IMG/VR virus record: IMGVR_UViG_3300027914_001163
Span: 127,434-191,433 of that record
DNA: 64,000 nt
Direction: 5' to 3' (one strand)
Origin: a virus
Lineage: Duplodnaviria; Caudoviricetes
Shown here: positions 974-59,845 of the stretch, piece by piece
How the letters are laid out: every line of letters starts with the position of its first letter
Position numbering within the stretch: position 1 is the stretch's first letter
The notes under the pieces: model-generated
Told to the model about the DNA's origin: nothing
The model's input: only the letters and a program-made list of their open reading frames with translations
Database searches by the model: none
Translations under genes and position numbers: made by a program

Positions 974-1329
974 AACTCTTTGAAGCGCAACTGATCATTG
1001 TCGTTGGGTATTCGAATATGCCATCCCATGTCGTAATGATTCTCAATAAAAATATAATCCATGTTTTTAAAATCTTTTCTGTACTCTTCTATGATAGGAG
1101 TAAGTTTCTCAGCCAGACCTCGTAACTGAGATTTTGCCATTCTAATCAGCATACCGCCATAGTTCTTCGCCAGGAATTCATCCGTGTAATCTTTAAATGA
1201 AATTCCCTCTGCCTTGAGAACTTTTTGAATGTCTTTATATATGACTATGGGCGTGTGTAATTCAAACGTTTGAATAGTGTTATTCTTTGATTGCTGTACG
1301 ACTGCTTCAAGATAGTTATTGAAACTCAT
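970..1329 (-). CDS. Putative internal head protein with CTS-like leader (MSFNNYLE/A)
   Basis: Leader shared with neighbours; last gene of a tightly packed minus-strand array. Confidence 0.65.
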   Translation of the reverse strand: MSFNNYLEAVVQQSKNNTIQTFELHTPIVIYKDIQKVLKAEGISFKDYTDEFLAKNYGGMLIRMAKSQLRGLAEKLTPIIEEYRKDFKNMDYIFIENHYDMGWHIRIPNDNDQLRFKEF

Positions 1330-1618
1330 TGTAATAATCCTTCACGGTAATCATTGGATCGTATGTGAACAACCCATCTTTGATATAATAGAGTGATGAC
1401 GGAGAGGCTTTGAATACAATAATGTTTCCCTGGTACTTCCCAAGATAGTGCATCTCTCCGTGTATGTCCTTTCCGCCGTATGCTTTGATAATTTCAGCAG
1501 CTTTTGTGACAATCTTATTATCCAGGAAAAGATTTTTCATATGATACGCAAAATACTTATGCGATGGTTCAGGACGTTCTTTCTGCATGGTCTCTATGTA
1601 ATAGTTTAATGTTTTCAT
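1316..1618 (-). CDS. Putative internal head protein (MKTLNYYIE/T), AVH-family domain variant
   Basis: Leader, plus the family pattern IIKAYGGKDI...IVFKASPSSL...DYY. Confidence 0.65.
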   Translation of the reverse strand: MKTLNYYIETMQKERPEPSHKYFAYHMKNLFLDNKIVTKAAEIIKAYGGKDIHGEMHYLGKYQGNIIVFKASPSSLYYIKDGLFTYDPMITVKDYYNEFQ

Positions 1619-1995
1619 TAGAAGTCGTTGTAATCTGGATTATAAAAATTTCTAAATCGTATATACGGTTTTAGTCCTGGATAATCATAATCCAGTTCGC
1701 TTTGTAAAACATTGTATATCTTTTCTCGTATAGTTTCGAGTTTGCTTTTTTGAGATTTGAATGTATACTTTATTGAAGCATAATTCTTAACAGAACTTTG
1801 CCATTGGGTATTCTCAAGTGTTACGCCTGTTGATTCTATTGCCTTTTTAATATCACGATTTATTCTTTGGACATCTTCTTGGTTATTCTTTTTAGAAAGT
1901 CCTATGATTCCAAAGTTTACAATGCAGAACCATTTATCTATTCGTTCTGTTGGAGCCTGGTGTACGGCCTCAAGATAGTCGGTAAAGGTTTTCAT
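1618..1995 (-). CDS. Putative internal head protein, AVH family (MKTFTDYLE/AVHQAP)
   Basis: Leader followed by AVHxxP; stop/start overlaps with neighbours. Confidence 0.7.
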   Translation of the reverse strand: MKTFTDYLEAVHQAPTERIDKWFCIVNFGIIGLSKKNNQEDVQRINRDIKKAIESTGVTLENTQWQSSVKNYASIKYTFKSQKSKLETIREKIYNVLQSELDYDYPGLKPYIRFRNFYNPDYNDF

Positions 1996-2399
1996 TCTTC
2001 GATTCCCTTTCTTACTGTTTCGCCTAATTCATTTTTTTGTTTTTTAAAATTCCACTCTTCTTGCGGTTTATCTCCCCAAGCCAACACTTTGTAAAGATGA
2101 TTATGATCCAATCTATCTTGAAATCTAACTTCCTTTCCTTGTACTTTATCAATCCTTAAATAATCTTGAAGTTCTTTTAGGGTTTTAATAAGTTTATTTT
2201 GAGATATTTTAATATCCAACAATGATGAAGTTTTAGTCCATTGCCTTTTTCGAATAATAACTCCATTGTTTTCTATGATTTTGATTATTTCTGAATCTGG
2301 TTCTTGAGGATGATTAAATATTAAAACTTCAACAATATATGATTGTGAACGTTCAGGTGTTTGGTGTACGGCCTCAAGATAGTCATTAAAGGTTTTCAT
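1992..2399 (-). CDS. Putative internal head protein, AVH family (MKTFNDYLE/AVHQTP)
   Basis: Start moved to the ATG at 2399, which gives the family leader. Confidence 0.7.
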   Translation of the reverse strand: MKTFNDYLEAVHQTPERSQSYIVEVLIFNHPQEPDSEIIKIIENNGVIIRKRQWTKTSSLLDIKISQNKLIKTLKELQDYLRIDKVQGKEVRFQDRLDHNHLYKVLAWGDKPQEEWNFKKQKNELGETVRKGIEE

Positions 2400-2438
2400 G
2401 CATTGTAACATTCCAATTGTTATCGTGCGACTTTTGTG

Positions 2439-2819
2439 TTATCGTACCGTATCGATTCCCGGTGTCACGTTCTTATGTGTATAATAATTAACGATCTGAA
2501 TAAAGAACTTGCTCTTGAAAGGAATTATATTACGGTCATCATTCGCAAGTTTGGTATAGATGTCATTGATCGAAGACTCCGGTGCTTTAAATGTTACCGT
2601 CTTCATTTCTCTCTTCTGCGGATCATTCTTCGAGATTACCAACTCCAGGCGTACATCCTTTCCACCGGCTTCCTCAATGATTGCTTTGAACAATGGAAAG
2701 TCTTTGACATAATTGTTGTCATAGTTGCGTTTCCCTCCCAAGTACACACGATTCGGAATGAACCATTTCTCGGCCTTGGCGGGAGTTGTATGGACAGCCT
2801 CAAGGAAGTGTTTCAACAT
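2439..2819 (-). CDS. Putative internal head protein, AVH family (MLKHFLE/AVHTTP)
   Basis: Leader, plus IIEEAGGKDV...TFKAPESSI...NYY. Confidence 0.7.
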   Translation of the reverse strand: MLKHFLEAVHTTPAKAEKWFIPNRVYLGGKRNYDNNYVKDFPLFKAIIEEAGGKDVRLELVISKNDPQKREMKTVTFKAPESSINDIYTKLANDDRNIIPFKSKFFIQIVNYYTHKNVTPGIDTVR

Positions 2820-2820
2820 A

Positions 2821-4533
2821 TTAATCGTACCATGCTTCTATATTTACCGGACGATCAAGAAAAGAAGTAAGATAAATTCGAATATCTTCAATCTTGTCCT
2901 TCGGCAGTTTGATCTTGATTACCGGCTCCAGATAGGTTGAATGTAAAGTCGTGCTCGGAAAGGCATCGTCCGTATTGATATGATAATCAGCTTTTAAATG
3001 TTCGAGCACTTCCTCCAGGTCTTTATCACATTTTTCCTGGGCGTATTGATACCATTGCTCGTCCATCTTAATAAATGTTCTGCGCCATTTAATCTCATAC
3101 ATCTCCAATCGTGAAGGTGTTGCGTGGACTGCTTCGAGAAAACCTTTTTTCTTTAGTTCTCTGGTACGGTTAAACCAAGTAAGCAATTGAGTTTGGTCAG
3201 TGTAATAATTTCTTATCACCATATCAATATCTGGAATGCCCAATAACTTTTCGATTTTCTTGCCAACCAATATTCCAATACGCTCTGGATTATCTTGATA
3301 TTGCTTTGATGGACTCGTTTTAAACAACACCACCAAATAATCTTTCATATGTTCATAGTCATAATCAATGACCTTGACGTTGTTCTGTTCCAACGTTTTA
3401 ATTATTGTTTCGGTTATCTTCTTTCTTTTTTTCGCATCAGGTTCATGCCAGTGAGTGTAATAGAGATTCGCTTTCTCAGGCGCAGGAACAGAATGAACCG
3501 CTTCATTGTATCGTTTATCCTGTTGTTCCTTCAGTTGTTTCTTCTTATGATAATCGTAGTATTCCTGGACTGCGTGAACGTTGACGTGTATCTTAAACGA
3601 GTTAATGGTAAATGAATAGAATGCTTTCTCCACGGCGGCAGTAATATCTTTCACCTTCTGTTCAGGAGCCTTAAACGATGTTCTCCCGACTTCTTTCCAT
3701 AGACCCCCAATCCTCTCGGTACTTTCTTCTGTTTGAATATCTTTAGCATCTTGGCGTTTCAATATGAACTCCAGGCGTTCCTTGACTCGTTTATTGCTTT
3801 CTCTACCCATTGTTTCAAATTGAATCATCCACTTCTTTATAGACCCCGGTGCTGAGTGAACTGCTTCATGTATGGGGATTTCTTTGATGAGTTTTGGATT
3901 TTTGAATATTCCATTCTCGTGATACAGAGATACAAGCCTCATCTTATATCCAAACTTCTTATACAACAATTCTTCCAACTCTATGATCTTCTCTTTCGGC
4001 ATTTTCAATATGGCATAGTCATAGGTTTTCTTTGGCTCCGAGAAAGAACGCTCATCCTCGAAACGTTTAACCTCGACGTTCTTACAATAATCGATTGTCT
4101 TCAGATAATTAACGACAGACTCCGGACCTATACCGCTGCCGTACCAATACTCCACATAGAAGTTTTCCAGTTTGTTGACAACCGGATGTACTGCTTCATT
4201 GATTGGAATATCGGACTCTTTCATCTTGTGAAATGCGCCAGGTCCATAAATGTCTTCCAAGGCCATGTGTGTATCGCCAAATCTTTTGTTGAGTTCTTCT
4301 TCGATTTCTTTTATCTTTGTTTCAGGGACTCGCAACACAACCAGGTCAAATCGGTACTGCGGTTTATTCGGCACGGTAAATCTTCTCACCCGAACATCCT
4401 TGCAGTCTTTTATATTCTTGAGTTCTTTGGCTATATCATACAGGTCAAGCGCAACAGGATAATTGGTAACGATCACTCGTTTCCATACTTTATCTGAAGC
4501 CTGATGTACCGCTTCGAGAAAATTATTCAGCAT
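2821..4533 (-). CDS. Five-unit AVH-family polyprotein, putative internal head protein
   Basis: Start at ATG 4533 with a GGAG RBS (MLNNFLE/AVH). Internal INEAVH, IHEAVH, YNEAVH and FLEAVH occur every ~110-125 aa. Confidence 0.75.
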   Translation of the reverse strand: MLNNFLEAVHQASDKVWKRVIVTNYPVALDLYDIAKELKNIKDCKDVRVRRFTVPNKPQYRFDLVVLRVPETKIKEIEEELNKRFGDTHMALEDIYGPGAFHKMKESDIPINEAVHPVVNKLENFYVEYWYGSGIGPESVVNYLKTIDYCKNVEVKRFEDERSFSEPKKTYDYAILKMPKEKIIELEELLYKKFGYKMRLVSLYHENGIFKNPKLIKEIPIHEAVHSAPGSIKKWMIQFETMGRESNKRVKERLEFILKRQDAKDIQTEESTERIGGLWKEVGRTSFKAPEQKVKDITAAVEKAFYSFTINSFKIHVNVHAVQEYYDYHKKKQLKEQQDKRYNEAVHSVPAPEKANLYYTHWHEPDAKKRKKITETIIKTLEQNNVKVIDYDYEHMKDYLVVLFKTSPSKQYQDNPERIGILVGKKIEKLLGIPDIDMVIRNYYTDQTQLLTWFNRTRELKKKGFLEAVHATPSRLEMYEIKWRRTFIKMDEQWYQYAQEKCDKDLEEVLEHLKADYHINTDDAFPSTTLHSTYLEPVIKIKLPKDKIEDIRIYLTSFLDRPVNIEAWYD

Positions 4534-4930
4534 CTTTCTTCTTCTCCGCATACCATGTTTTATTTCTCTCGTAAACCAGTTCATTGGTATAATAGTCACA
4601 GATGCCAAACCAAGTTCGCATCTCTTTAATTACTTCCATGTTAGCCAGGTAATCCCACTTCTTTCCCAAGTTGATCGTGTTCCTGATATTAACTTCAATT
4701 TGTTGAAAGATTGAAGGATGACCATTAAATACAATGATCACACTATTCTTGCCGCTATTCGCCTTTACTGAACGTGCCTCTTCTTGAAGATTGGTTCCTC
4801 CGGCCTTCTTGATGGCTCTCTTCATAATGCCGACGATAGCATTCATATGAATATTATCATAACTGAAAAGATAATATCGCTTCTTGGTAGAGGGCGTGTT
4901 ATGAATTGCTTCGAGATACACGTTAAGCAT
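4523..4930 (-). CDS. Putative internal head protein, AVH family (MLNVYLE/AIHNTP)
   Basis: Leader, plus AIKKAGG...IVFNGHPSIF...DYY. Confidence 0.7.
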   Translation of the reverse strand: MLNVYLEAIHNTPSTKKRYYLFSYDNIHMNAIVGIMKRAIKKAGGTNLQEEARSVKANSGKNSVIIVFNGHPSIFQQIEVNIRNTINLGKKWDYLANMEVIKEMRTWFGICDYYTNELVYERNKTWYAEKKKDAE

Positions 4931-5279
4931 CTTTCTCTCCTGATTTTTCTTTTACTGATGAATGACGGCTGAATACCCAATCTTGCTTGTTGTATTTTCT
5001 ATATGCTTGAAATATTACTCTTATTGGAAGAAATGTTAATAATGCTTCTCTAACTCTTTCTAAAGAAGGAGGATCAATTTTAAATGAATATATTGCTCCT
5101 CCTCTCATACTCCAACCTACATAACTTGCATTATCCTTACCGCAGATATTTTCAAGGACTTCAACAATTTGATCATCTGTTATGTTTCCTATATGATCGG
5201 TATCTATCCAGAGTTCATACTGCTCGACAGGTTTGGGCGTTGTGTGTACCGCTTCGAGATAATGTTTAAATGTTTTCAT
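4923..5279 (-). CDS. Putative internal head protein, AVH family (MKTFKHYLE/AVHTTP)
   Basis: Leader motif. Confidence 0.7.
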   Translation of the reverse strand: MKTFKHYLEAVHTTPKPVEQYELWIDTDHIGNITDDQIVEVLENICGKDNASYVGWSMRGGAIYSFKIDPPSLERVREALLTFLPIRVIFQAYRKYNKQDWVFSRHSSVKEKSGEKDA

Positions 5280-5726
5280 TTATTTTCTTAATGCCTTACG
5301 ATATTCTTTTTGATATTTGAATATTTGAGTCCAATTAACTTTATCTTTCATTTCAATAATAAAATTTTTAGACATTTGAACATTTTTTGATACGACATTC
5401 CAATCAACAAAGTCTTTAAAATCTCGAATGAAGTCTTCAGGTAAAGTATAATAGGTGCAAAAGGTAGTCCAATCCATATTGTAAACATCATATGATCTAA
5501 AAGGAATGATTTCGGGTATAGTATCTTCCGAGGATTTAAAAAATATAATTCTGCCATTATCATATGTTTTAAGAACTTTCCCACCGCTTTTACCAAGAAG
5601 TATCAGTGCTTTGTTTTTCCAATAGATGTCCTCGTTTTTATTGTTGCTACTTGATACCATAATAAACTTTTTTGTTTTTTCTGGAACCTGGTGAACTGCC
5701 TCAAGATAATGTTTAAATGTTTTCAT
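5280..5726 (-). CDS. AVH-family protein with C-terminal tryptophan-repeat module
   Basis: MKTFKHYLE/AVHQVP; repeats LPEDFIRDFKDFVDW / MSKNFIIEMKDKVNW. Confidence 0.7.
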   Translation of the reverse strand: MKTFKHYLEAVHQVPEKTKKFIMVSSSNNKNEDIYWKNKALILLGKSGGKVLKTYDNGRIIFFKSSEDTIPEIIPFRSYDVYNMDWTTFCTYYTLPEDFIRDFKDFVDWNVVSKNVQMSKNFIIEMKDKVNWTQIFKYQKEYRKALRK

Positions 5727-6192
5727 TGTTCTTCCGTGCCAGGTCTTTAATCTTCTTATACGTTTCAGGCTTCATCTTGAGTTTGTACCGGATCATAACG
5801 TCTTCAGCAAACTGTCCCATATCAAAAAACAATTGTGAGACTTTTCCTTTAGGTTCAGGAATCAGTTGTTCACCGTTGTAGTAATCGAATATCAAGGTAT
5901 AATCCATTTCAGGCACGGTCGTAATTGCATTAAACAAATTATACAATATCGACCTGGGACATTTGATGATATACACAAAGAACCGTCCGTCACCAATTGA
6001 ATATTCTTTTAATCTTCCAGAGCCGTAATGATCAGTAACTTCATACCTGAGAACTTCGGCCTTGTATTCATCCAACTTATGCTTAACCTGTGGAATACCG
6101 GCAGCATCATGACACACACAGGAGATGACATACTTCTCCATTCTCTCTGGAGCCTGGTGTACGGCCTCAAGATAATAATCAAATGTTTTCAT
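5713..6192 (-). CDS. Putative internal head protein, AVH family (MKTFDYYLE/AVHQAP)
   Basis: Leader motif; IIKCPRSIL...FDYY. Confidence 0.7.
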   Translation of the reverse strand: MKTFDYYLEAVHQAPERMEKYVISCVCHDAAGIPQVKHKLDEYKAEVLRYEVTDHYGSGRLKEYSIGDGRFFVYIIKCPRSILYNLFNAITTVPEMDYTLIFDYYNGEQLIPEPKGKVSQLFFDMGQFAEDVMIRYKLKMKPETYKKIKDLARKNNENI

Positions 6193-6671
6193 TAGTCAGT
6201 ATCCAAATGATTATATTTATATTTAAACGACAGGGATACGTCTTGATAGCGCAGGATGTTATGCCAATCTACTTTATCTTTAAACTTCAAGATAAACTTC
6301 TCAGACATCTTACTGTATTTTGAAACAGAAGACCAATCAACGAAATCTTTGAAATCTCGAATGAATGATTCCGGCAGCTCCCAATCACTACAGAACTGTT
6401 TCCAATCCATTGTATATATATCATCGCAATCACCAAAAAGATAATCTTCAGGGGCGAGATTGGAAGGACATTTAAAAAATATAATCGTTCCATTATCTGC
6501 ATCTGCGCTTTTATATATCTTTAGTATTTCACTATTGGGAATTGATTTGATTTCTTGGAGAACTGAATCTCTTGTCTCTTCTTGCAAATCAAACGCTATG
6601 GTAATATATTTTTTAAATTTATCTGCTTGTACCTTGTGGACTGCTTCGAGATAATAATTAAACGTTCGCAT
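6192..6671 (-). CDS. AVH-family protein with tryptophan-repeat module, paralog of 5280-5726
   Basis: Start ATG 6671 gives MRTFNYYLE/AVH; repeats LPESFIRDFKDFVDW / MSEKFILKFKDKVDW. Confidence 0.7.
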   Translation of the reverse strand: MRTFNYYLEAVHKVQADKFKKYITIAFDLQEETRDSVLQEIKSIPNSEILKIYKSADADNGTIIFFKCPSNLAPEDYLFGDCDDIYTMDWKQFCSDWELPESFIRDFKDFVDWSSVSKYSKMSEKFILKFKDKVDWHNILRYQDVSLSFKYKYNHLDTD

Positions 6672-7446
6672 TATATATTTCTCCATTATCATACAAACGA
6701 TATACCGTATTATGAGTTCTGTCGTTTACTATATCAATAAATACGCCAGAAGAACGTTGCTCTTTGTCTTTTATTATTTGTTTAAGGAGATAATAAACTT
6801 TTTTATCAGACGTTTTGAGTCGTATTCTTGTTTGCATTCCTTGTTGTGATTCCTCTGTTATTTCAATATTGGAATGTTTTATGATTTGAATAATATGAGA
6901 GATAATATTTTCCAAATGATACTTAGCGACTACAGAACTATTGAAATAAACTTTTAAAAGATATTCTCTTTTCTGTTCCGGCTCAGTATGCACGGCCTCC
7001 AGGAAGATGTCAGGAATCTCTTCATCGGCCACCAGTTTCTTTGTATGAACCAATGTCACCGGCACTGCGCTGATAATGTCCGAAGGTTCAACTGTTCCAA
7101 CCTTTTTATACCATACGCCCTTGTTGCCAGCTTGAGACAATGGATCGTTTGTATCAACGACCCATTTGCCAGTCTTCTTGAATTTGATTATTGAAATCTT
7201 TCCGCTGCCGACTTCCTGGTTAAGACTCCAATCCATTCGAGCTGCCCACTGGATTGCATCTCGTTGGTGTTCGAATGCGTAAATCTCTCCCTTGCCGTAG
7301 CGTGTGAAATCTCCCTTAACCCAATTACTTGTCTGCATCATGACCAAGCCCTTCTTCTTGATCTTTGGAACATTGGAAGTTTTGGTTACATGATACAGAT
7401 ATTGTTCCTTGCCTTTAACGGCAGCTTCAAGATAATATTTAAGCAT
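6658..7446 (-). CDS. Two-unit protein: ADP-ribosyltransferase-like (Tpt1/KptA/DarT-type) domain plus AVH domain
   Basis: MLKYYLE/A leader; YLYHVT...VPKIKKKGL and GEIYAF motifs; internal IFLE/AVHTEP. Confidence 0.6.
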   Translation of the reverse strand: MLKYYLEAAVKGKEQYLYHVTKTSNVPKIKKKGLVMMQTSNWVKGDFTRYGKGEIYAFEHQRDAIQWAARMDWSLNQEVGSGKISIIKFKKTGKWVVDTNDPLSQAGNKGVWYKKVGTVEPSDIISAVPVTLVHTKKLVADEEIPDIFLEAVHTEPEQKREYLLKVYFNSSVVAKYHLENIISHIIQIIKHSNIEITEESQQGMQTRIRLKTSDKKVYYLLKQIIKDKEQRSSGVFIDIVNDRTHNTVYRLYDNGEIYNANV

Positions 7447-7447
7447 C

Positions 7448-13987: not shown

Positions 13988-14356
13988 CTACGTTCCCCAT
14001 TTCGTATTATAAGCCGGTTCGAAGTCCTTATAATAATCATAGAACAGAACTTTTGTCAAGAGTTCTGATTGAATTTTTTCTTTTACTTTTTTAAAAATTG
14101 TCTGATCGCTTGGGGTTTTGAATACTATTCCAGTCCAATCTCCATCTACCTCAGTTCTGAGCCTGAAGTTGAATAAGACATTTTCTATATCCTTGGAGGT
14201 AACTCTGTTCACGCCGAATTCCTTCAGGATAGATTCTATTTTATTATAATCCGTATCTGAATGTTTCTTATTAAAAAGAACGACATACGTTTTAATTCTA
14301 TTAGTGTCAGGCGTGTTATGAACTGCTTCGAGATACTTCTGAAAGTTTCCTGTCAT
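13988..14356 (-). CDS. Putative internal head protein, AVH family (MTGNFQKYLE/AVHNTP)
   Basis: Start ATG 14356; ILKEFGV...IVFKTPS...YDYY; lies directly downstream of the portal. Confidence 0.7.
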   Translation of the reverse strand: MTGNFQKYLEAVHNTPDTNRIKTYVVLFNKKHSDTDYNKIESILKEFGVNRVTSKDIENVLFNFRLRTEVDGDWTGIVFKTPSDQTIFKKVKEKIQSELLTKVLFYDYYKDFEPAYNTKWGT

Positions 14357-14457: not shown

Positions 14458-16470
14458 TTAATCATTATAGGCGAAGCAATCTGAAAGACCGGTAAATTCT
14501 CCATTGAGTTCCAACTCCTCATAAGATACATGATGTTTCCTGACATATTTTGTCGTTTCTTTTTCTTCCTTTTGCATAAGAATAACTTTCTGTTGTTCTT
14601 CTACCATCTCGTTTATCATGGTTACCAGTTTATTCTTCTTCTGCAAGGCTTCACTGTAATTTTGTTTCTTGTCGATTGAGAACATTGGAACATACTCTGC
14701 CGTCTCAGGAGCCGGTCCCAGTTGTCCGGCTACGTCTGGCGGAATGGGTGTAGGTCCGGGGGCTGTGCCTTCTTCGCCTGGTGCTGGAGTTCCTGCCTCT
14801 CCTCCTGCGGGAGCCGGTGGTGCGCCTCCTCCTGCCGGTACTCCACCGCCTGGTGCGCCCTCTCCTTCTGCTGGCGGCGGTGTCATCTCTGCTAAGTCTT
14901 CTGATCCTTCTGGTCTTTCTTCTTCTGGCAACGCTTCGAAGATGTTCTTACCGGCCTGTTGGAGTTGCGCCAGTTTCAACCATTCAACTATTTCTTCATC
15001 AGAAAGTTTAAGAACATCCTGATAGATTTTGTAATCAGGAATAAAGACGGATTCAGCATTGAGAGACTTCATGTTCATTATCAAACCCCACCTTGAGGTT
15101 TCAATTTCAATGCGTTCTTTCTCGTCAATGTTGGATGGGTTATTCATCGTTAAAACAAGTTCATCGAATACACGGCTGCTGTATCCATTAAGGCGGAGTT
15201 CGATGTAGGCCAGTTTATACATTTGATATAAGAAACAACGCTGAATCCGTCTGATTTTTTTCGCAAATGGTTTTGACTTACTTGAAAGATTTGTATTTGC
15301 ATTGGCGAAAGTGTCATCATATAAATATTGTCGAGGAACACCAACACCAGGAAATATTTTATCTCGAATAAATTCAAGATCACCAACGTCACCAGGATTA
15401 TTTAACTGATCGAGAGTGGTTATGCTATGTCCTTCATCTCCGGCACGTTTTGGAATAACAATATCTTCAACTGTTCCAAAGATGTCACGTTGATAGTCAA
15501 TTTTGTTTTTACTGTATATATCGAGTTTACGTTTGTTTCTGAAATTATCCATTACCTGTTTAGCGTATTTCATTGCTGATTCACCTTGGAGTGTACCAAC
15601 ATTTATATTGAAGATACGGCGTTCGGGAGCACGAGTAATCCTGGCGATCAACAACGACTTCTCCATCATACTTATCATTTCAATCGAAGAAAGAACACTA
15701 TCGATAACGGCTTCTCCATAAATGCCATATTGCGATGATGGAATTCTAAAGTGAAGCATACGGAATGGATAGAATCGTTTATTTTCTTTCTCATATTCTG
15801 TTTGATAGTTTACGGTGTATGCAAAATATGACAATGTGTTGGTGTCTCTCATTTCAACGTCAGATACTTCAAATCCAAGAAGGTTTCCATTCTTTTCAAC
15901 ACGGAGAATAAACTGCCTGGGGAGATGAATGAGTTTAAGAATCCTTTTAAGACTTTGAGATATTACCACTTCCCAAAAGTCATCACCGTAACCGCACATG
16001 TCTTTGATAATTCCCCATGCTTTGTCGTTTATCCCAAGGCGAGAATACATCTTATCAAGCAGCTCAACAACTTCTTCCTGCGGGTGGACAACATGAAGTA
16101 TTTCGCCGTCCTGATCTTCTGTGGTGGCTTCGTCAGCATGGATATTGAGTACACCGACGATCTCAGGGTGCTTCTGCGCTTCTTGGAGACGATTGTAACG
16201 CAGTCTCCGCTCTCCAACACGTTCTTCCTGCTGATAAATATGTCCGATCAGTTCATTGACTGATACAGCCCCAAGCGCATTGATCTTGTCGTCCAGGCCG
16301 TACAACTGAAGAGGTATGTTGTCTGGCGATTGGATGAGCATATTCGCCATGCCGGAGATTTCAGAGTCAGAAGGAGAAATCTTTAACTTGCGATCAATCC
16401 GTTTCCAGAGGTACTTAATTTCCTGTGGGGTAATTTCTGTATTATTGGAAGTAATTGTTGGTTCGGCCAT
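14458..16470 (-). CDS. gp20: Portal protein (T4 gp20-like) with Pro/Gly-rich C-terminal extension
   Basis: HPEI...ADEAT, MLHFR, YGEAVI, LIARITRAPERRIFNINVG, EDIVIPKR and GVPRQYL motifs; ATG at 16470. Confidence 0.92.
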   Translation of the reverse strand: MAEPTITSNNTEITPQEIKYLWKRIDRKLKISPSDSEISGMANMLIQSPDNIPLQLYGLDDKINALGAVSVNELIGHIYQQEERVGERRLRYNRLQEAQKHPEIVGVLNIHADEATTEDQDGEILHVVHPQEEVVELLDKMYSRLGINDKAWGIIKDMCGYGDDFWEVVISQSLKRILKLIHLPRQFILRVEKNGNLLGFEVSDVEMRDTNTLSYFAYTVNYQTEYEKENKRFYPFRMLHFRIPSSQYGIYGEAVIDSVLSSIEMISMMEKSLLIARITRAPERRIFNINVGTLQGESAMKYAKQVMDNFRNKRKLDIYSKNKIDYQRDIFGTVEDIVIPKRAGDEGHSITTLDQLNNPGDVGDLEFIRDKIFPGVGVPRQYLYDDTFANANTNLSSKSKPFAKKIRRIQRCFLYQMYKLAYIELRLNGYSSRVFDELVLTMNNPSNIDEKERIEIETSRWGLIMNMKSLNAESVFIPDYKIYQDVLKLSDEEIVEWLKLAQLQQAGKNIFEALPEEERPEGSEDLAEMTPPPAEGEGAPGGGVPAGGGAPPAPAGGEAGTPAPGEEGTAPGPTPIPPDVAGQLGPAPETAEYVPMFSIDKKQNYSEALQKKNKLVTMINEMVEEQQKVILMQKEEKETTKYVRKHHVSYEELELNGEFTGLSDCFAYND

Positions 16471-16556
16471 AAATTTTCCTATTCTTTTTGGTGAAGTCGT
16501 TATAATATACAATTATATTAGATCGTTTTACAAAAAAGGACTTAAAAAAAGGCCAA

Positions 16557-16976
16557 ATGAAAGTATTGGAATTTTATCTCGAAGCATCACGGCCAACTCG
16601 ATTGAATGAACTTCGCAAATGGAAAATGGAAATAAGTTACAGCGGTTATTGGCATAGAAGTTGGAGAAAGAGACTCGAAATTGACAATCCAATTGAAGAA
16701 GTTCCTGAACTCGATGAGAGAGTTCATAAATCGTTAATGGATAAAATAACCGCTCTATTAAAAGAATATAATATTGAAAATATTCAAGAAATTCCAAGAG
16801 GTTCTTTAGCAGACAGCAACGAAAGAAAAGTTAGAATGGACTACGATATTATTTTCAGGACAACTTTCAAAAACGCCATTGAGATACGAAGCAAAGTTCA
16901 ACACCTTCTTGACGATGAAGAATTTTCAATACAGGGTTGGAGTTTAGATGGCGTACACAATTATTACGAAAATTAA
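16557..16976 (+). CDS. Putative internal head protein (MKVLEFYLE/A)
   Basis: Leader; ends NYYEN like the AVH family. Confidence 0.65.
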   Translation: MKVLEFYLEASRPTRLNELRKWKMEISYSGYWHRSWRKRLEIDNPIEEVPELDERVHKSLMDKITALLKEYNIENIQEIPRGSLADSNERKVRMDYDIIFRTTFKNAIEIRSKVQHLLDDEEFSIQGWSLDGVHNYYEN

Positions 16977-16993: not shown

Positions 16994-17398
16994 ATGTCAT
17001 CAAGATTTAGGGAATATCTCGAAAAAACATACTCAGAAGAAGGCGAAGAACCAGAAGAGGGCGGAGCGAATCTTCCTGCTGTCCGTGGCGGTATGGGACG
17101 TGAAATGATGGGGAGAGCAACCGGCTTTCCTCATGAACTGCAAGTTAAACTGATGAGTGAAATGAAACATCTCCAGAGCCAACCGCATAAGTATCTCAGG
17201 ATGATGAACGACCTCATGCCAATCATGATGAAACTTCAAGGTGGTGAATTTCTCAAGCCAGCCGAAGCCGAAGAATTCCTGAATAAATATAAAGAGTTCG
17301 ACAAGGACGTAAACAATCCTCGGTACTTCAAACTGCTGAAAGAATTCTTGACTACTGGAAACTGGAACTTTGCCAAATTTAAAGGTGATGTTCGGTAA
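16994..17398 (+). CDS. Putative internal head protein (MSSRFREYLE)
   Basis: AGGAG RBS, ATG 16994, leader, then an acidic tract. Confidence 0.65.
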   Translation: MSSRFREYLEKTYSEEGEEPEEGGANLPAVRGGMGREMMGRATGFPHELQVKLMSEMKHLQSQPHKYLRMMNDLMPIMMKLQGGEFLKPAEAEEFLNKYKEFDKDVNNPRYFKLLKEFLTTGNWNFAKFKGDVR

Positions 17399-17760
17399 TG
17401 AATCTTTCTCGTTATCTCGAAGCAAAACACGCCGCAGAAAAACTTGAACGATATACCAGATACGAACTGGACATGACCAATTATTCTGCCAATTATCATC
17501 TTAATTGGAAAGAATTTATTGATCGTGATATTCAAGAAGTAATGAAATTTTTAAAAGAGAACGGCGCACTGGATGTGAAGTTTGCCATGAAAGGAAAAAT
17601 GGCTTCATCGGGAGCTGCAAACTTTATTATCGATTTTAAATCTGCGCCCTCTGTTGTGGCAAAGTTTCTTGATGTCATACGAGATAACATGCCTGGTTGG
17701 AGTGTTAACATTTATGATAAATATCAAAATGTAAACATAGTGGAGTTGCTTTCATTATGA
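17398..17760 (+). CDS. Putative internal head protein, AVH family (MNLSRYLE/AKH)
   Basis: LKENGALDV...IDFKSAPSVV...YDKY. Confidence 0.7.
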   Translation: MNLSRYLEAKHAAEKLERYTRYELDMTNYSANYHLNWKEFIDRDIQEVMKFLKENGALDVKFAMKGKMASSGAANFIIDFKSAPSVVAKFLDVIRDNMPGWSVNIYDKYQNVNIVELLSL

Positions 17761-18101
17761 GTTTAAAATATTATCTTGAGGCAGTACATAAAACTCCTGG
17801 TAGAATACGCAGATTCCTTTTGGGAATGGATAACTTAGCAAAAGGAGATCACATAAATGAAAAATTTCAAACAAAGGCTATAGAAAAAACAATTCAACTA
17901 TTAAATAGTCTTAAAGTGTTGGATGTACGGCTGACTGACCGAAGCAACCTGAAAGATATTTTTTATCCTTATTTTGGAATATCATTTCGAGCATCGATGG
18001 ACATGCTTCATAAGATAGATAAAACATTAAGATTACAAATGAATGATTGGATCACATCATACACAGACGAAGAAAATAAGCGAACTGTTTACCCTGATTA
18101 A
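17757..18101 (+). CDS. Putative internal head protein, AVH family (MSLKYYLE/AVHKTP)
   Basis: Leader motif; ISFRASMDML. Confidence 0.7.
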   Translation: MSLKYYLEAVHKTPGRIRRFLLGMDNLAKGDHINEKFQTKAIEKTIQLLNSLKVLDVRLTDRSNLKDIFYPYFGISFRASMDMLHKIDKTLRLQMNDWITSYTDEENKRTVYPD

Positions 18102-18114
18102 ACGGAGATAGATC

Positions 18115-19728: not shown

Positions 19729-19729
19729 C

Positions 19730-20134: not shown

Positions 20135-20135
20135 C

Positions 20136-23539: not shown

Positions 23540-23540
23540 T

Positions 23541-23850
23541 ATGAATGTATTCCAAGGGCATTACTTTGAAGCAAGTGATCATAGTAATGCCATTTTAAAA
23601 AGAAATAAAAAAATATTCTGGATCGGCGCAGTCAATTTACTCGATGGATACATTGAAGAAGTTTATACATATGAGACAGCCAAGAACGCAGATTTTCATC
23701 ATAGTTTTTACTTCAGCCAAAACGCTATAAGAAAAATTCGTGAAGAAGAATGGGGAATTTTTCTGGATCGATAATAAAAAGGTTGTCACATGGGATTTGG
23801 AAGTGACACCTGAAATAATCTCAAAAGTAAAAGAACAAATCAGCGTATGA
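23541..23850 (+). pseudogene. CTS-leader gene interrupted by an apparent 1-nt frameshift at ~23758-23762
   Basis: The ORF stops at 23774, but the +1 frame continues FWIDNKKVVTWD...QISV to a TGA overlapping the next ATG (23847-23850). Confidence 0.55.
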
Positions 23851-24566
23851 TCGGATTACAATATTATTTTGAAGCCAAGCATGATGTGCCAGAGCGTTTA
23901 GAAACCTGGAGCATACGTTCACACAATGCATATCTTTTTCATCATCAAGATCAATGGATGAAGATTCTCATGTCTTTAAGCAACGACTTTACAAATGCCG
24001 GAGCCATTGATGTACACTATGAAAAATATCAACCTGGCTCTGCAATACCAATACTTGTTTTCAAATCTCCGGTATCAATGCTCAGAAAACTTCAAACCAT
24101 ATTATTTAATCTTCTCAAAGAAACAGGATACAAACTTTATACTGATATATCATTCATCAATAAATATTCTGGTAAACCATATTATGACTATACAAATGGT
24201 TTGCATGAAGAATTTTTAGAATCAGTTCATCAAGCATCATCTGAAAAAATAAAAAGATATTTTATATATGTTGTTGGCGGTTCAGAAAAGGATGCCGATA
24301 GTTATTCACATAAATCCTGGGAAAAGAGAATCATGTTTATGAAAGGAGTTATATTGAAGCGTGGAGGTCGTGCTGTATTCTCGGAAATGGCGCACCATCA
24401 AGTTGATAATAAATCAAAAGAACAATATCATAGAGGTTTCAATACTATAATATCTTTTAAAGCCCCATATTCCGCTCTTGACACTATCAGAAAAAATATA
24501 ATTCCAAAAGAAGATTATGACCATCCCATATGGGATTATTATAGTAAGGAGTTAGTTAGAAGATGA
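23847..24566 (+). CDS. Two-unit AVH-family polyprotein
   Basis: MIGLQYYFE/AKHDVP and internal FLE/SVHQAS; both units carry FKSP/FKAP and end in (D/K)Y(Y). Confidence 0.7.
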   Translation: MIGLQYYFEAKHDVPERLETWSIRSHNAYLFHHQDQWMKILMSLSNDFTNAGAIDVHYEKYQPGSAIPILVFKSPVSMLRKLQTILFNLLKETGYKLYTDISFINKYSGKPYYDYTNGLHEEFLESVHQASSEKIKRYFIYVVGGSEKDADSYSHKSWEKRIMFMKGVILKRGGRAVFSEMAHHQVDNKSKEQYHRGFNTIISFKAPYSALDTIRKNIIPKEDYDHPIWDYYSKELVRR

Positions 24567-27704: not shown

Positions 27705-27995
27705 ATGAAACTCAAATACACAGATGAACAAATTCAGAGAGCCGCAAAAGGTTTAAAGTGGTATAAAGAAGAAGAACAGAATGAAGAGCCTGAAAAAAAG
27801 GAAAAGCACTTCAAGACGTTTACCATTGGGGATGATAAGATCGATGTTGATATACTCCACGGATTTATTTATATCAACGATGAGTTGGTTACGGCTGATA
27901 CTGATATTCCTAAGAAGGTCATAAAAATTCTTCAAGAGATCATACCGAAAATTGCCAATGGCGATGAAAAACTTGAACACAAAGAGGAAGAATAA
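27705..27995 (+). CDS. Hypothetical protein in head module
   Basis: 96-aa ORF with a TAATG overlap into the protease. Confidence 0.6.
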   Translation: MKLKYTDEQIQRAAKGLKWYKEEEQNEEPEKKEKHFKTFTIGDDKIDVDILHGFIYINDELVTADTDIPKKVIKILQEIIPKIANGDEKLEHKEEE

Positions 27996-28672
27996 TGGAC
28001 ACAATTGTTTATAGACCGTATATATCAGAGGCTTGGGTATCAGAATCGTTTGGTTACACTGAAGCCAATATCGAAATAAATGGCAAACCGTATCTTCAAA
28101 TAATCCTGGAAGGAGAATTCCAAAGAGCAAGCAAGCCTAATAAAAACAATCGTATTTATACGGAAACGCTCTTATCTCGTGAAACAGCCAAATTGCAAGA
28201 ATCGATCAGGCGCAGGAATGGTCACCCAATGGGAATGGACCATCCGATGCCCAATCCAAACGATCCTCCACAATTACAACTTCAACAAATAAAACGTATT
28301 GGTCTGGAGAACGCTTGCGCCCTTACCAAAGTGTTGGAAATGAACAATGGCGTTGTCTATGGTAAGGCGGAGGTTTTAACCGGTGACGGTGGAACAGGTG
28401 ATAAACTTGCTTCTATGGTTAGAAGGAAATTCAAACCGGCTGTATCGTCTCGTGGAGTAGGCGGCGATCCAGTACATCAAAATGGATTCATGTATGTACC
28501 GGAAAGTTATAATATGGTTTGTTACGATTTCGTAACTGACCCTTCTACGCACAATGCAATTCTTGAACAAGCCATCCAAGAAGAGGTTTATTTAATGGAA
28601 CAGGCTACCAAATACGTCCGCACTCTTTGGGATGTCATGGTCGATTTTAACAACAAACACGGAATGAAATAA
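27995..28672 (+). CDS. gp21: Prohead protease (T4 gp21-like)
   Basis: LEGEFQRA..PNKNNRIY, GMDHP (His), VSSRGVG (Ser) and YDFVTDPS motifs. Confidence 0.93.
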   Translation: MDTIVYRPYISEAWVSESFGYTEANIEINGKPYLQIILEGEFQRASKPNKNNRIYTETLLSRETAKLQESIRRRNGHPMGMDHPMPNPNDPPQLQLQQIKRIGLENACALTKVLEMNNGVVYGKAEVLTGDGGTGDKLASMVRRKFKPAVSSRGVGGDPVHQNGFMYVPESYNMVCYDFVTDPSTHNAILEQAIQEEVYLMEQATKYVRTLWDVMVDFNNKHGMK

Positions 28673-29740: not shown

Positions 29741-31342
29741 ATGTTTTATAACGAAGCTTACGAAGAGCGTAAAAAACTCGAAGAAGCGTTGGTACAAAAA
29801 TGGCACAAAGCTCTGGAAGTGAATAACATTTCCGATGAACATACCGCCAGGACAACGGCTATCATACTTGAGAACTATCTTGAGCACCTTGAGGAAACTC
29901 CTCAACTGATAGCAGAAGACCAGATTCAAACCAGCGCATTTACCGGCGTGAACCTTGCTCTGCTCGGCCTTCTCGCTCGTGCTATCCCACAACTCATCGG
30001 TCTCGAACTCTGCGGTGTCCAGGCAATGCCGACCCCTCGTTCCCCGATCTTTACACTCCGTTGGTACAAGTCTGACCATAAAGGTGCGACCGCTGCCAAA
30101 GAAGAAATGTGGGTAAGCCCCATTCCGGCTCAGTACCCTGTTGGTATCGATCCGTACTACACATCTCAACAAATTCGCAACGAAGCATGGACGGTCAGCG
30201 GTGACGATCCAACCACTCTCGTTTGGGCGAATAAAATCAACGCAAAAGGTCTGCGTCCACTCCTGTTCACAGGAACGATGTATGTCCGTTGCTTTGATGC
30301 CTCTGGAAACGTTCTGACAGTTGTTGCTTTTGCTGGCGACCTTAACTCGAACGGAACTTTTCCTATTACCGGTACTCCTTCGGCTGCGTTCGGTGCAAAC
30401 CAGAACATGAAGCTCGAACTCAATGGAACAACCGGGAACAAACAAATCCAGGCTTATGATACCAACGGTGCAACGGCCGCATCTCTGACTGATCTTACAG
30501 TCGGCGGAACATCTGTTGCTTCTGCGATCATAGATTACGAATACAAGGCTGAAGACGAAGGAAGCATTCCTGAAATGACTTTCGAAATCACCCAAGATTA
30601 CGTCGATCTGATCCGTAGGCAATTAAGAGGTAACTATACGCTGGATAGCGCATACGACCTCAAGAAGTTGCATGGCATCGACCTGGAATCGGCTATCATG
30701 GATATGATGAAGCAAGAACTCATGGCTGAAATAAACCGTGAAATTGTAAGCGACCTCAGACTCCTTGCGGCCATTACCAAGACCCTCGACTACAACCTTC
30801 TCCCTGCCGGAAATCCAGGAGTTGCCGGACAAGTATCGGTAAACGCTAACTGGAACGATGCGCAGATCGCTCTCCTCGATGCAATCGAGAAAGTGTGCGC
30901 TGAAATCTGGATTTTGGGAAGGCGTGGATATGGTAACTTCGTGGTTGGTAACCCTTCCACTCTGTCTTTCCTTGACCGTGTTCCTGGCTTCGTCGGTTCC
31001 GGCGTTACTTATAACGGACGTGACCTGTCGTATGCTGGTTCCCTCGGTGGAAAGATAAAGTTCTACCAAGACCCACAGTACCCGAAGAACGAACTGCTGA
31101 TCGGCTACAAAGGCAATTCGGCTATAGATAGCGGATATGTGTATTGCCCATATCTTCCTATCACAGCAACGCCGACTCTGCTTGATCCGATGACTGGTAA
31201 CCCAAAGAAACTGTACTACACCAGGTACGGCAAAACTTTCCAAGATCGTGGAAACAACGGTATGCCAAAGAATCTGATCCTCATGGGCGAATATCAGTAC
31301 GCTCGTCTGACGATAGCGAACATGCCTGTTCTTTTCAGGTAA
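29741..31342 (+). CDS. gp23: Major capsid protein (T4 gp23-like)
   Basis: LVQKW, TAIILEN, GVQAMPTP, YDLKKLHGIDLE, AEINREI, GNFVV, YCPYLP and TRYG motifs. Confidence 0.96.
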   Translation: MFYNEAYEERKKLEEALVQKWHKALEVNNISDEHTARTTAIILENYLEHLEETPQLIAEDQIQTSAFTGVNLALLGLLARAIPQLIGLELCGVQAMPTPRSPIFTLRWYKSDHKGATAAKEEMWVSPIPAQYPVGIDPYYTSQQIRNEAWTVSGDDPTTLVWANKINAKGLRPLLFTGTMYVRCFDASGNVLTVVAFAGDLNSNGTFPITGTPSAAFGANQNMKLELNGTTGNKQIQAYDTNGATAASLTDLTVGGTSVASAIIDYEYKAEDEGSIPEMTFEITQDYVDLIRRQLRGNYTLDSAYDLKKLHGIDLESAIMDMMKQELMAEINREIVSDLRLLAAITKTLDYNLLPAGNPGVAGQVSVNANWNDAQIALLDAIEKVCAEIWILGRRGYGNFVVGNPSTLSFLDRVPGFVGSGVTYNGRDLSYAGSLGGKIKFYQDPQYPKNELLIGYKGNSAIDSGYVYCPYLPITATPTLLDPMTGNPKKLYYTRYGKTFQDRGNNGMPKNLILMGEYQYARLTIANMPVLFR

Positions 31343-41572: not shown

Positions 41573-41574
41573 TT

Positions 41575-56792: not shown

Positions 56793-56811
56793 TTAACGGT
56801 GGAGGAAGAGT

Positions 56812-56997: not shown

Positions 56998-57008
56998 GAG
57001 AAACAACA

Positions 57009-57365: not shown

Positions 57366-57703
57366 TGGCTACCAAATTTAATGAATACCTTGAAAGAATT
57401 TTAAATGAAGATAATTTTTTCAAATCAGAATTTACAATCAGCAAAATAAACGATGCTGACGCATGGAAAAAGATTTGCCAAGGAACATCATGGGATTCAG
57501 CACACGCTGGAGAATATTTAAAAAGGGGACCGGCATATCTCGTCAGAAAAGGAAATGCCAAATTTGCACTATTACACCCTGCGACTGATGCCGCTTACGA
57601 TACTTCTGATCGTGCTCTCGATGCAACTACTAAAGCAAAATTTTTCAAAATGATCAAACAAGGAAACTTTAAGTCAATTACAAACAAACCGCAAGGAGAA
57701 TAA
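57365..57703 (+). CDS. Putative internal head protein (MATKFNEYLE), minimal WCT-like domain
   Basis: Leader; AWKKICQGTSW...YLKRGPAYLV resembles the WCT domain core. Confidence 0.6.
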   Translation: MATKFNEYLERILNEDNFFKSEFTISKINDADAWKKICQGTSWDSAHAGEYLKRGPAYLVRKGNAKFALLHPATDAAYDTSDRALDATTKAKFFKMIKQGNFKSITNKPQGE

Positions 57704-57706
57704 ATA

Positions 57707-58060
57707 ATGAGCGAAACATTTCATAAATACCTTGAGATGGCTGAAGTCGCCACGACAACCATTAAAACAAAACGTGGCGTGGGTATTAAATATCATAATA
57801 CCGTAGTGGTTGAAATACTTCCTGACGGCGGATATGTCCTGGACAGCGGCGGATGGAGAACTTCAACAACCAAAAAGCGCATGAACAAATATATCGACCG
57901 TGAATTTTCTGTTGTTCAAAAGCATAACGAATGGTTTGTTAAAACTCCAAAAGGAGAATTCCCTTTCGAAGATGGAATGGAAATAAAAGCAAACGGCCAG
58001 GTAGTCAATGCTTCTGAAGAGGAAAATGATAATCCAGAACCAGAAGAAGAAAAGAAATAA
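57707..58060 (+). CDS. Putative internal head protein (MSETFHKYLE/M)
   Basis: Leader; YHNTVVV...LDSGGWRTSTTKKRMN domain seen in phage hypotheticals. Confidence 0.65.
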   Translation: MSETFHKYLEMAEVATTTIKTKRGVGIKYHNTVVVEILPDGGYVLDSGGWRTSTTKKRMNKYIDREFSVVQKHNEWFVKTPKGEFPFEDGMEIKANGQVVNASEEENDNPEPEEEKK

Positions 58061-58264
58061 ATGCACAAACGAGTGGCGCATATTGTAGCCGGAACTTCGG
58101 TGCAATGCCCCAAATGTAATTCAACCGAAGTTTTTATGAAAGTCATGGGGAAAGCAACTCACAAGGTTTCAATCAAGGATTACAGTTGCAAACAATGTCA
58201 AATCGTCTTTACGGTTACTGATCGCTGGCAGGAAAGAGGAATTTTAAGAACGTATACCTTTTAA
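58061..58264 (+). CDS. Small zinc-ribbon protein
   Basis: CPKC...YSCKQC. Confidence 0.6.
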   Translation: MHKRVAHIVAGTSVQCPKCNSTEVFMKVMGKATHKVSIKDYSCKQCQIVFTVTDRWQERGILRTYTF

Positions 58265-58461
58265 GCCTTCTCGACAATACGTTGAGCAATTTTTACGGCT
58301 TCCTGTTCATCTTTGATATACTGCAACGTTTCCTTTAAAGCCATCTCAACTAATTCATCAAACGAAGTACCCTTCTCCTTAAAGGGTTTTATTTTTTGTG
58401 CGATTTCCTGTTCTTTGGCTTCATCACGGATCATTTCATAATAGTAGTCAAAAAGGCTCAT
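58261..58461 (-). CDS. Putative internal head protein (MSLFDYYYE/M)
   Basis: Leader variant; AGGAG RBS on the minus strand. Confidence 0.55.
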   Translation of the reverse strand: MSLFDYYYEMIRDEAKEQEIAQKIKPFKEKGTSFDELVEMALKETLQYIKDEQEAVKIAQRIVEKA

Positions 58462-58553
58462 GGCAACTCCTGATATTTTTTATCGATAATATATAATTCC
58501 ATTGAATATATTATCAGCCGAATCAAGAAAAGTTTATATTAAATGAGGAACAT

Positions 58554-58760
58554 ATGGCTAAAGGAAAATTTAATTCATATCTTGAAATGACTCGCATGGA
58601 TACATCAGAAAAATTGTATCAAGAACTCGTCAAGATCATATCAGATAAAACAGTTCTGCGTACTGTGTATAGTCTGGCTGTCGAGTACGGTGAGGCAAAG
58701 CACAAAGAGGGTTACAACGAAGGATATGAACATCACAAAAAATGGCCACAGAAAAAATAA
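58554..58760 (+). CDS. Putative internal head protein (MAKGKFNSYLE/M)
   Basis: Leader motif. Confidence 0.6.
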   Translation: MAKGKFNSYLEMTRMDTSEKLYQELVKIISDKTVLRTVYSLAVEYGEAKHKEGYNEGYEHHKKWPQKK

Positions 58761-58818
58761 GTCTTGCATTTTCTACAACGCATTATAGAATTTTGTAAAA
58801 TATAGAGTATAGGTTTTC

Positions 58819-59508
58819 ATGAACACAATTGAACATTTCGAATCGTTGCAGCCGAAACGCACGAAAGACGGACGGTTGCGAAGCGATGTTGCCAGAAGCG
58901 CAATAGCAAAAGGTAAAACAGGTGAACGTGCTCTTACTGATATTCTCACTAAAATATCAGGAGTTCCGTTTATTCGAATACCAAACTCTGGAGCCAGGGT
59001 CGGTCTCACCAACCGAGATCGCATTCATCAATTTACTGAGCACCAGGTAGAAAGTATGTTGGGAGATATTTTCCCACCGCATGAATTAAGGTATCATATG
59101 ATTATCGAGAGTAAGAATTATGCGTCTCTTGCTTTTAAGAAACTCTCTCAAGGCAAACTACCAGCTCTACTTGAAGAATGGATAAGTGAAATTTTATATG
59201 ATATTGAAAGCTATTTAATATTCAAAGAACGATACAAAAGAAAAATCAGAGAACCGCTTGGATTCCTTGGATTTAAAATAACAAAGCAAGGAACCTGGAT
59301 AGCGTATAGTAAAACTTATTTTGAAAAACTCTGTCTTGATAAATTCAATCCAACCTACACCGTGCTTTATAGAAACATAAGCCCCAGGCTTGAACAGATC
59401 GGTTATGGTATGGAGTGGTACATTGAAGATTTTAAAACTTTCGTCATCAACAATAAAATCAATATGTTTGAATTAAGCCCGGATGCGCAAGATGAAAAAG
59501 CAATTTAA
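58819..59508 (+). CDS. PD-(D/E)XK nuclease, Holliday-junction-resolvase-like
   Basis: KGKTGER...RIPNSGA...GDI...IESK motif order. Confidence 0.75.
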   Translation: MNTIEHFESLQPKRTKDGRLRSDVARSAIAKGKTGERALTDILTKISGVPFIRIPNSGARVGLTNRDRIHQFTEHQVESMLGDIFPPHELRYHMIIESKNYASLAFKKLSQGKLPALLEEWISEILYDIESYLIFKERYKRKIREPLGFLGFKITKQGTWIAYSKTYFEKLCLDKFNPTYTVLYRNISPRLEQIGYGMEWYIEDFKTFVINNKINMFELSPDAQDEKAI

Positions 59509-59845
59509 AACCTACTTGGAAGCAAGACAATATCCACAACGAGTCACAAAATGGTACGTTGATGATTCAGAAATGTTTTATACTCAAGTTAAAAATGGTT
59601 ATTATAAAAACATTCCCATTATGATCCAAGCAATTGAGAAAGCCGGTGGAACAAAAACAAAAGTAGAACACAAATACGGTTGGGATAACCAACCTCAAGT
59701 TATCGTGTTTACTGCTCCCATGTCGATCATACCAAACATAGAAGTTGAAATAGCAAAAGCCTTAGACATCTACCCCGCTCGTCGTCCAAAAATAGAAGAC
59801 TATTACTCTGTTTGGGACTTAAAAGTTCCTGAAGCAGATCGATAA
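59492..59845 (+). CDS. Putative internal head protein, AVH-family domain (MKKQFKTYLE/A)
   Basis: AIEKAGG...IVFTAPMSII...EDYY. Confidence 0.7.
   Translation: MKKQFKTYLEARQYPQRVTKWYVDDSEMFYTQVKNGYYKNIPIMIQAIEKAGGTKTKVEHKYGWDNQPQVIVFTAPMSIIPNIEVEIAKALDIYPARRPKIEDYYSVWDLKVPEADR

Follow-up and report, generated by a model that had tools for sequence, protein, structure and literature searches.

Bacteriophage T4 injects three mutually unrelated proteins, Ip1, Ip2 and Ip3, which carry a capsid-targeting sequence, are processed by gp21 and inhibit GmrSD (PMC9026906, PMC12373910), each being specific for one GmrSD (PMC12373910). Family B of the phiKZ-like phage SPN3US consists of 20 head paralogs of unknown role, encoded in tandem (gp138-154; PMC5694885). 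Phage polyvalent proteins are multi-domain virion cargo composed of mixed enzymes, and some are proteolytically processed (Iyer et al. 2017, PMC5512222).

Here we describe a family of small domains in an uncultured T4-like phage of 191 kb. Its 24 units are carried by 19 genes, and 22 of them lie inside the window, by which we mean the whole 64,000-nucleotide stretch analysed. As in T4, a short N-terminal leader ending in Glu coexists with a gp21-type protease, and the locus is a variable accessory one in which bodies are swapped behind a conserved leader. The T4 proteins, however, have no homology beyond the leader, whereas a single fold is common to the 24 units; predicted cut sites inside fused genes and a conserved Ala-Val-His after the cut further distinguish the present family. 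Unit bodies show no homology to T4 Ip bodies (scores of about 0 bits). Family B of SPN3US offers another parallel, with about 20 mostly tandem paralogs, a head location that is shown or inferred, and a copy number that differs between relatives. The phage studied here is T4-like rather than phiKZ-like, however, and its units match no cultured phage by sequence and each have a leader or a cut site.

Family membership and gene organization

An earlier note on this DNA had grouped about 20 units into one family and called for an alignment beyond the leader. We scored each unit against an HMM of the remaining units, with the first 8 mature residues cut off, and compared the result with 300 shuffles. 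The grouping holds with the leader removed for 21 of the 22 listed units, and 24 of the 25 units tested outscore all 300 shuffles, with narrow margins for 970 (10.6 vs 10.2 bits) and 6192 (6.8 vs 6.3). Membership of 16557 is unconfirmed, as 10 of 300 shuffles reach its score (E 0.2). Three members are additional to the earlier list: the weak unit at 970-1329 and two genes upstream of the window. The genes in question and the main head genes are as follows.

125109-125483 and 125854-126162 (record G000): two added family genes upstream of the window (HMM test)
970..1329, minus strand: leader and weak family unit, mature start AVV (HMM test, marginal)
1316..1618, minus strand: leader and family unit with TMQ in place of AVH (32 bits vs a maximum of 10 for shuffles)
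1618..1995, minus strand: leader and AVH unit; Atlas model ACT-like, TM 0.52-0.58 (HMM test, model)
1992..2399, minus strand: leader and AVH unit (HMM test)
2439..2819, minus strand: leader and AVH unit; the deletion of variant contig L004 starts inside it, at 2742 (HMM test, variant contig)
2821..4533, minus strand: 570-aa five-unit polyprotein; joints INE/AVH, IHE/AVH, YNE/AVH and FLE/AVH (joint Glu codons at 4197, 3867, 3504 and 3135)
4523..4930, minus strand: leader and AIH unit (HMM test)
4923..5279, minus strand: leader and AVH unit; L004 shows 3 nonsynonymous and 0 synonymous changes (HMM test)
5280..5726, minus strand: leader, AVH unit and C-terminal module matching PHROG 3532 (HMM test)
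5713..6192, minus strand: leader and AVH unit; its 58-bp leader region carries another body in a second phage
6192..6671, minus strand: leader, AVH unit and C-terminal module 46% identical to that of 5280 (HMM test)
6658..7446, minus strand: leader, N-terminal domain with sub-threshold ADP-ribosyltransferase matches, FLE/AVH joint (Glu at 6999), AVH unit
13988..14356, minus strand: leader and AVH unit, two genes downstream of the portal (HMM test)
14458..16512, minus strand: T4 gp20-like portal (phrog_213, E 5.6e-50)
16557..16976, plus strand: leader-bearing gene, family membership unconfirmed
17398..17760, plus strand: leader and AKH unit (HMM test)
17757..18101, plus strand: leader and AVH unit, sister of 17398 in the tree (HMM test, tree)
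23847..24566, plus strand: two-unit polyprotein; AKH unit, FLE/SVH joint (Glu at 24219)
27995..28672, plus strand: T4 gp21-like prohead protease (Peptidase_S77, E 7e-11)
29741..31342, plus strand: T4 gp23-like major capsid protein (homology)
59492..59845, plus strand: leader and parent-like copy; GW.NQP motif of PHROG 32873 kept, AVH replaced by ARQ

Probable true starts are at 4533, 2399, 6671, 14356 and 59492. Median pairwise identity between units is 15.6%, and the motif pattern described earlier is only partly kept at GG.DV, FK.P and DYY. The tree of copies has very long terminal branches and too few columns for rooting or for showing a single origin. With the polyprotein as query, tblastn returned no cultured phage, looking for longer forms turned up only proteins of the same phage, and Pfam, NCBIfam and PADLOC scans gave scattered or sub-threshold matches only; a lectin match was discarded, as it had no passing stretch. 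The earlier note had recognised neither the T4-like context nor the capsid-targeting nature of the leader, and it mentioned neither the protease-type cut sites nor PHROG 32873 as a parent family.

Leader, predicted cut sites and the Ala-Val-His start

At the start of every family gene stands a capsid-targeting leader of T4 type, about 10 residues long, of the form M-K-T-F-x-x-Y-L-E/A and ending in aromatic-Leu-Glu, which is common to about 41 genes of the phage. Compared with the T4 Ip leaders, its P3 residue is mostly Tyr or Phe instead of Ile. When the leader was sought with DNA patterns, only chance matches came up. Inside the fused genes the motif [FYI]-x-E/[AS]VH is retained at all seven internal joints, and the remainder of the leader has decayed there. 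We infer that the gp21-like protease is the processing enzyme, and it is very likely that the units are packaged and cleaved, by analogy with T4.

Conservation extends past the cut: His occupies mature position 3 in 21 of the 24 units and in none of 23 other leader genes. Because the codons for Glu-Ala-Val-His are saturated with synonymous changes, the motif is maintained at the protein level, and we reject recent DNA homogenisation as the sole cause of its conservation. The leader amino acids are likewise kept despite codon saturation, which argues against a quite different account, namely that the proteins stay out of the head as early cytoplasmic effectors and that the leader serves as a translation or recombination cassette. 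This account would fit the leader DNA marking crossover points, the early-type clusters in which many leaderless relatives are found (see below), and the outcome of a search for a shared late promoter, which found none. We nevertheless consider it improbable, given also that Glu-site joints persist within fusions, where a start signal would be useless, and that the portal and head genes have family copies on either side.

An aromatic residue of strand 1 falls at mature position 12-14 in 22 of the 24 units, which defines an N-terminal arm of tight length, and this arm is confidently modelled (pLDDT 86) in the single good model, that of a unit without the His. Together, arm length and model suggest docking; once cleaved, the predicted arm would most likely settle onto the domain. 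They speak at the same time against a metal-binding role, in which cleavage would expose an ATCUN-type site, defined as amine-X-X-His, on the free amine of Ala-Val-His, and bound Cu or Ni would protect the packaged DNA or arm a target-specific oxidative warhead. Provided that the predicted cut occurs, the His lies at exactly the position required, Pro is absent from positions 1-2, and the motif is kept at all internal joints with its codons saturated. However, the His is missing from three members, the cytoplasm contains little free Cu, and we found no literature linking ATCUN to phage virions; we regard this role as quite improbable. Sequence conserved after a cut site, and not just before it, suggests that head maturation may create a functional N-terminus.

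Descent from PHROG 32873

Profile comparison traces the domain back to PHROG 32873, a conserved but unnamed family of jumbo phages (parent vs paralog profiles: probability 95.6, E 1.2e-8, bridging copy excluded). The GWSNQP hairpin, invariant in the parent, persists among the copies only in 59492. Where it has been seen, the parent is a single, conserved and often leaderless copy, many members lying in small-gene, early-type clusters, whereas here there are 24 copies that have lost the signature with that one exception. Core strands and helices are retained, but it is in the loops, invariant in the parent, that the copies now vary most (standard deviation of loop length 0.0-0.8 in the parent vs 4.2-6.4). 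Parent members also recur behind unrelated Glu-ending leaders and as a module within large multi-module phage proteins of about 1,700 aa. The latter recalls the polyvalent proteins, although the present genes repeat one domain and have no Pfam polyvalent-protein domain matches. PHROG 32873 thereby becomes tied to putative virion cargo, with a cultured representative in Xanthomonas phage XacN1 (ORF046, BBA65194.1).

Fold of the units

The beta-alpha-beta-beta-alpha-beta, ferredoxin-like topology anticipated by the earlier note is backed by two independent models. The specific link to bS6 or ACT domains that it drew is not: ACT, HMA, bS6 and designed ferredoxin folds tie (Z 6-7, TM 0.5-0.66; best Z 6.9, none of 8 or above), none of these families stands out, a sequence link to them is lacking, and no Pfam match exceeds the cut-off. 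Foldseek searches of viral and PDB libraries returned nothing at E<=0.001, and the single-sequence fold of the 570-aa polyprotein (pLDDT 40) was left unused. The proposed fixed scaffold with a highly variable surface is borne out as a fixed core with hypervariable loops.

Loss and exchange of units

The nearest relative that we examined, 83% complete and 66% identical in its capsid protein, is rich in leader genes yet has zero family copies, and in variant contig L004 five copies appear to be lost and a sixth truncated. A second phage, known from two short contigs of one sample (L005 and L006), carries other bodies behind the same leader, together with an ortholog of 6192..6671 (dN/dS 0.15). 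Variation sits between separate genes and the phage genome (record 83% complete) has no RVT_1 match, and on these grounds we reject a diversity-generating retroelement.

This patchy presence bears on the view that the units are packaged and cleaved, yet serve inside the head itself, in its core, its inner body or the packing of DNA, their divergence reflecting loose surface constraint instead of different host targets. Mature units are mostly basic (pI 8-9.6), T4 internal proteins have DNA-binding activity at low salt, with IPIII also helping the head to assemble (PMC9026906), and the SPN3US family is a precedent for numerous head paralogs (PMC5694885). Against it stand the relative without the family, the losses in L004, unit charges spanning -6 to +7, and body swapping at the leader, which fits an accessory locus; on balance we find an in-head role unlikely.

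Loss and long terminal branches might also suggest that leader-driven duplication has merely left behind near-neutral copies, which decay and serve no function. We consider this very improbable: no reading frame is broken, both AVH and the core of the fold persist, and dN/dS, which the earlier note had proposed to measure across homologs, was obtained for two ortholog bodies, where values of 0.15-0.23 point to purifying selection and no positive selection is seen.

Proposed function

We slightly favour, by analogy with T4, the reading in which the units are packaged, protease-released and injected binders on one diversified ferredoxin-like scaffold; that they are host-directed binders is somewhat better than an even bet, and the binder or inhibitor library of the earlier note remains plausible. 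The leader would load each protein into the prohead, where the gp21-type protease would cut after Glu, including at the internal joints, so that units of about 100 aa would each be released with Ala-Val-His as their new N-terminus. Copies that kept the parental core and lost or remodelled its invariant loops, and whose bodies appear to be exchanged between related phages, would then enter the host along with the DNA, where their variable loops would engage different host proteins. These would most plausibly be variants of defence proteins, as for T4 Ip1-3 and GmrSD; no PADLOC or structural match links the units to known anti-defence proteins. The overall reading is also weakened by the P3 residue that differs from that of the T4 Ip leaders, by the many leaderless parent members and by the near relative that has the leader but not the family. 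More speculatively, and rather doubtfully, the 24 units may form an injected repertoire of binders that is renewed by leader cassette exchange and stays inactive until the head matures; release of the Ala-Val-His end by the prohead protease would then activate each unit, this end docking onto the domain or binding a metal.

If true, this would show one small scaffold diversified 24 ways where T4 uses three unrelated proteins, and thus another route to broad counter-defence. The 24 units also constitute a ready panel for host-target discovery.

Family membership and fold

The earlier note had listed 22 highly divergent copies of one domain. We excised 25 candidate units, trimmed mature residues 1-8 from them, and used an HMM of the other units to score each in turn: 24 of the 25 outscored all 300 shuffles, showing that they align beyond the leader, and 21 of the 22 listed units are upheld. 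The candidate at 16557 failed this test, and score margins were narrow for units 970 and 6192. Scanning the whole genome added nothing to these 24 units, which occupy 19 genes (22 units within the window) and have a median pairwise identity of 15.6%.

A ferredoxin fold resembling bS6 or ACT domains had also been proposed. Structure prediction bears out the beta-alpha-beta-beta-alpha-beta order (AlphaFold2 model of the 59492 unit, 20-row alignment, pLDDT 84), and the Atlas model of the 1618 unit, ~20% identical to the former, matches ACT domains (TM 0.52-0.58). The specific link to bS6 or ACT was not supported: against 48,161 solved chains the top Z was 6.9, none reached 8, and ACT, heavy-metal-associated, bS6 and designed ferredoxin folds tied. 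The modelled fold holds up, but it is generic and says nothing about function.

Leader and head genes

A leader of ~7-11 residues, ending Tyr/Phe-Leu-Glu, opens every single-unit gene. It resembles the leaders found on internal head proteins of T4 (Ip), which steer proteins to the prohead and which the protease gp21 cuts off after Glu (PMC9026906). The virus record (linear, 191,433 bp, ~83% complete), of which the window is the final 64 kb, encodes these head proteins:

14458-16512, - strand, T4-type portal (homology match)
27995-28672, + strand, gp21-like head protease (Peptidase_S77, E 7e-11)
29741-31342, + strand, gp23-like capsid protein (homology match), only ~28% identical to cultured T4 relatives

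The units would very probably be packaged in the head and then cleaved; action in the cytoplasm is improbable.

About 41 genes in the genome carry the leader (44 pattern matches, 3 probably spurious). The nearest relative read (G001; capsid protein 66% identical) has ~28 leaders and zero copies of the AVH family; the cargo system is therefore common to both phages and the AVH expansion lineage-specific. The relative's leader genes form arrays of their own (contigs L053-L055), with Lys at mature position 3 in 13/32 pattern matches. Outside the family, this phage has ~23 leader genes (whole-record positions 408-5889; window 16994-25080, 39856-41019 and 57009-58760), including large paralogous proteins lacking a Pfam name at 18115, 20136, 21974 and 39856.

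Fusions and the predicted cut site

Three genes depart from the single-unit form:

2821-4533, five-unit fusion
23847-24566, two-unit fusion
6658-7446, unrelated domain plus one unit

P0017, from a second phage, likewise fuses two units. The seven internal joints have all lost the leader start and retained [FYI]-x-Glu/[AS]-Val-His. Mature residue 3 is His in 21/24 units versus 0/23 other leader genes (Fisher P 2e-10, overstated because paralogs are non-independent), and strand 1 begins at mature position 12-14 in 22/24. Codon-pair differences among 21 units (Glu 0.50, Ala 0.70, Val 0.70, His 0.52) equal or exceed the saturation expectation, so Glu-Ala-Val-His is maintained at the protein level. 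We infer that each unit must be released with its Ala-Val-His arm intact; that the arm forms an ATCUN metal site is quite improbable.

The N-terminal domain of the 6658 gene (7027-7446, - strand) has sub-threshold PARP (E 0.006) and Tox-ART-HYD1 (E 0.05) matches and may be a packaged ADP-ribosyltransferase fused to an AVH unit, comparable to T4 Alt. Units at 5280-5726 and 6192-6671 end in a Trp/Phe/Asp-rich module, which in 5280 matches PHROG 3532 and in the 6192 ortholog is more conserved than the ferredoxin part (dN/dS 0.09 vs 0.21). A GNAT acetyltransferase gene (8066-8677, - strand) lies immediately upstream of the array.

Origin from a conserved phage family

Searching with a profile built from 59492 plus three outside matches retrieved 38 members of a conserved family, 80-100 aa long, in which a GWSNQP hairpin is invariant; of 33 members aligned, 32 match PHROG 32873. 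The family has a cultured example in XacN1 ORF046, which occurs in two copies inside the 66-kb terminal repeats (PMC5852040). Parent and paralog profiles align with probability 95.6 (E 1.2e-8, bridging copy excluded), and 11 units individually beat all shuffles. Parent members occur leaderless in small-gene clusters, behind other Glu-ending leaders, or as modules of ~1,700-aa phage proteins, flanked by short Phe/Tyr-x-x-Gly-Gly repeats. Repeat-rich proteins of this kind (contigs L031, 5484-10682, and L046) have one module that is PHROG 32873; the repeats are possibly a different cargo-cleavage code.

The copies retain core strand and helix positions and have lost the parent's invariant residues. 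Alignment-dependent lengths are 17-19 residues in the parent versus 11-44 in the copies for the strand1-helix1 loop, and 15 versus 7-26 for the central hairpin. The copies sit on terminal branches of mostly 1-3 changes/site, and parent members of unrelated phages on branches mostly <1; tandem neighbours make up several sister pairs, on a poorly resolved backbone.

Variation and selection

A second phage (SRR26638149; short contigs L005 and L006) carries an array with the same leaders. There, 6192-like similarity crosses the next leader to about Ala-Val-His-x-Ala-Pro, after which the body changes; farther on, 58 bp 98% identical to the 5713 leader precede another body. At L006 759-878 an inverted fragment of a 5713 ortholog lies within another AVH gene, to which it is joined either by genuine inversion or through chimera formation during amplification.

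Two orthologous bodies (122 and 40 codons) have dN/dS of 0.15 and 0.23 and are under purifying selection; that the copies are neutral is highly improbable.

Relative to the window, to which it is 99.87% identical, variant contig L004 is missing 4.47 kb (whole-record 125702-130174; joint at 7398/7399), although this is a single contig and possibly misassembled. Five copies are removed, and a sixth continues in frame into another gene across a joint that shows no microhomology. The deletion takes in a PAPS-reductase-family gene ending at window 785, and the L004 copy of the 4923 gene has three nonsynonymous and no synonymous changes.

Possible function

The analysis shows one family sharing one fold, with motifs of leader and cut site alongside a cognate protease; its loops have diversified, bodies have been swapped and purifying selection acts. 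The family shares the sequence-level features of the T4 Ip class and would work in the same way, but no Ip is homologous to it. We slightly favour a scheme in which freed units would be ejected and bind different host proteins, close to the binder library first suggested, the precedent being T4 Ip1-3, each of which inhibits one GmrSD variant (PMC12373910); a structural role in the head is rather unlikely. SPN3US has a known family of head paralogs with 20 members (PMC5694885); the expansion of one scaffold from PHROG 32873, with Ala-Val-His conserved behind the predicted cut site, is apparently undescribed in the literature found.

Four DNA methyltransferases (three N6/N4, one C5; whole-record 41272-42629, 60231-60830 and 75355-76518) are encoded, which makes modification-dependent restriction one candidate class of target, though no more than a lead. 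The product of 63112-63915 (+ strand), with a DUF3293 match and a weak S-adenosylmethionine lyase match (E 0.004), is a possible anti-restriction enzyme.
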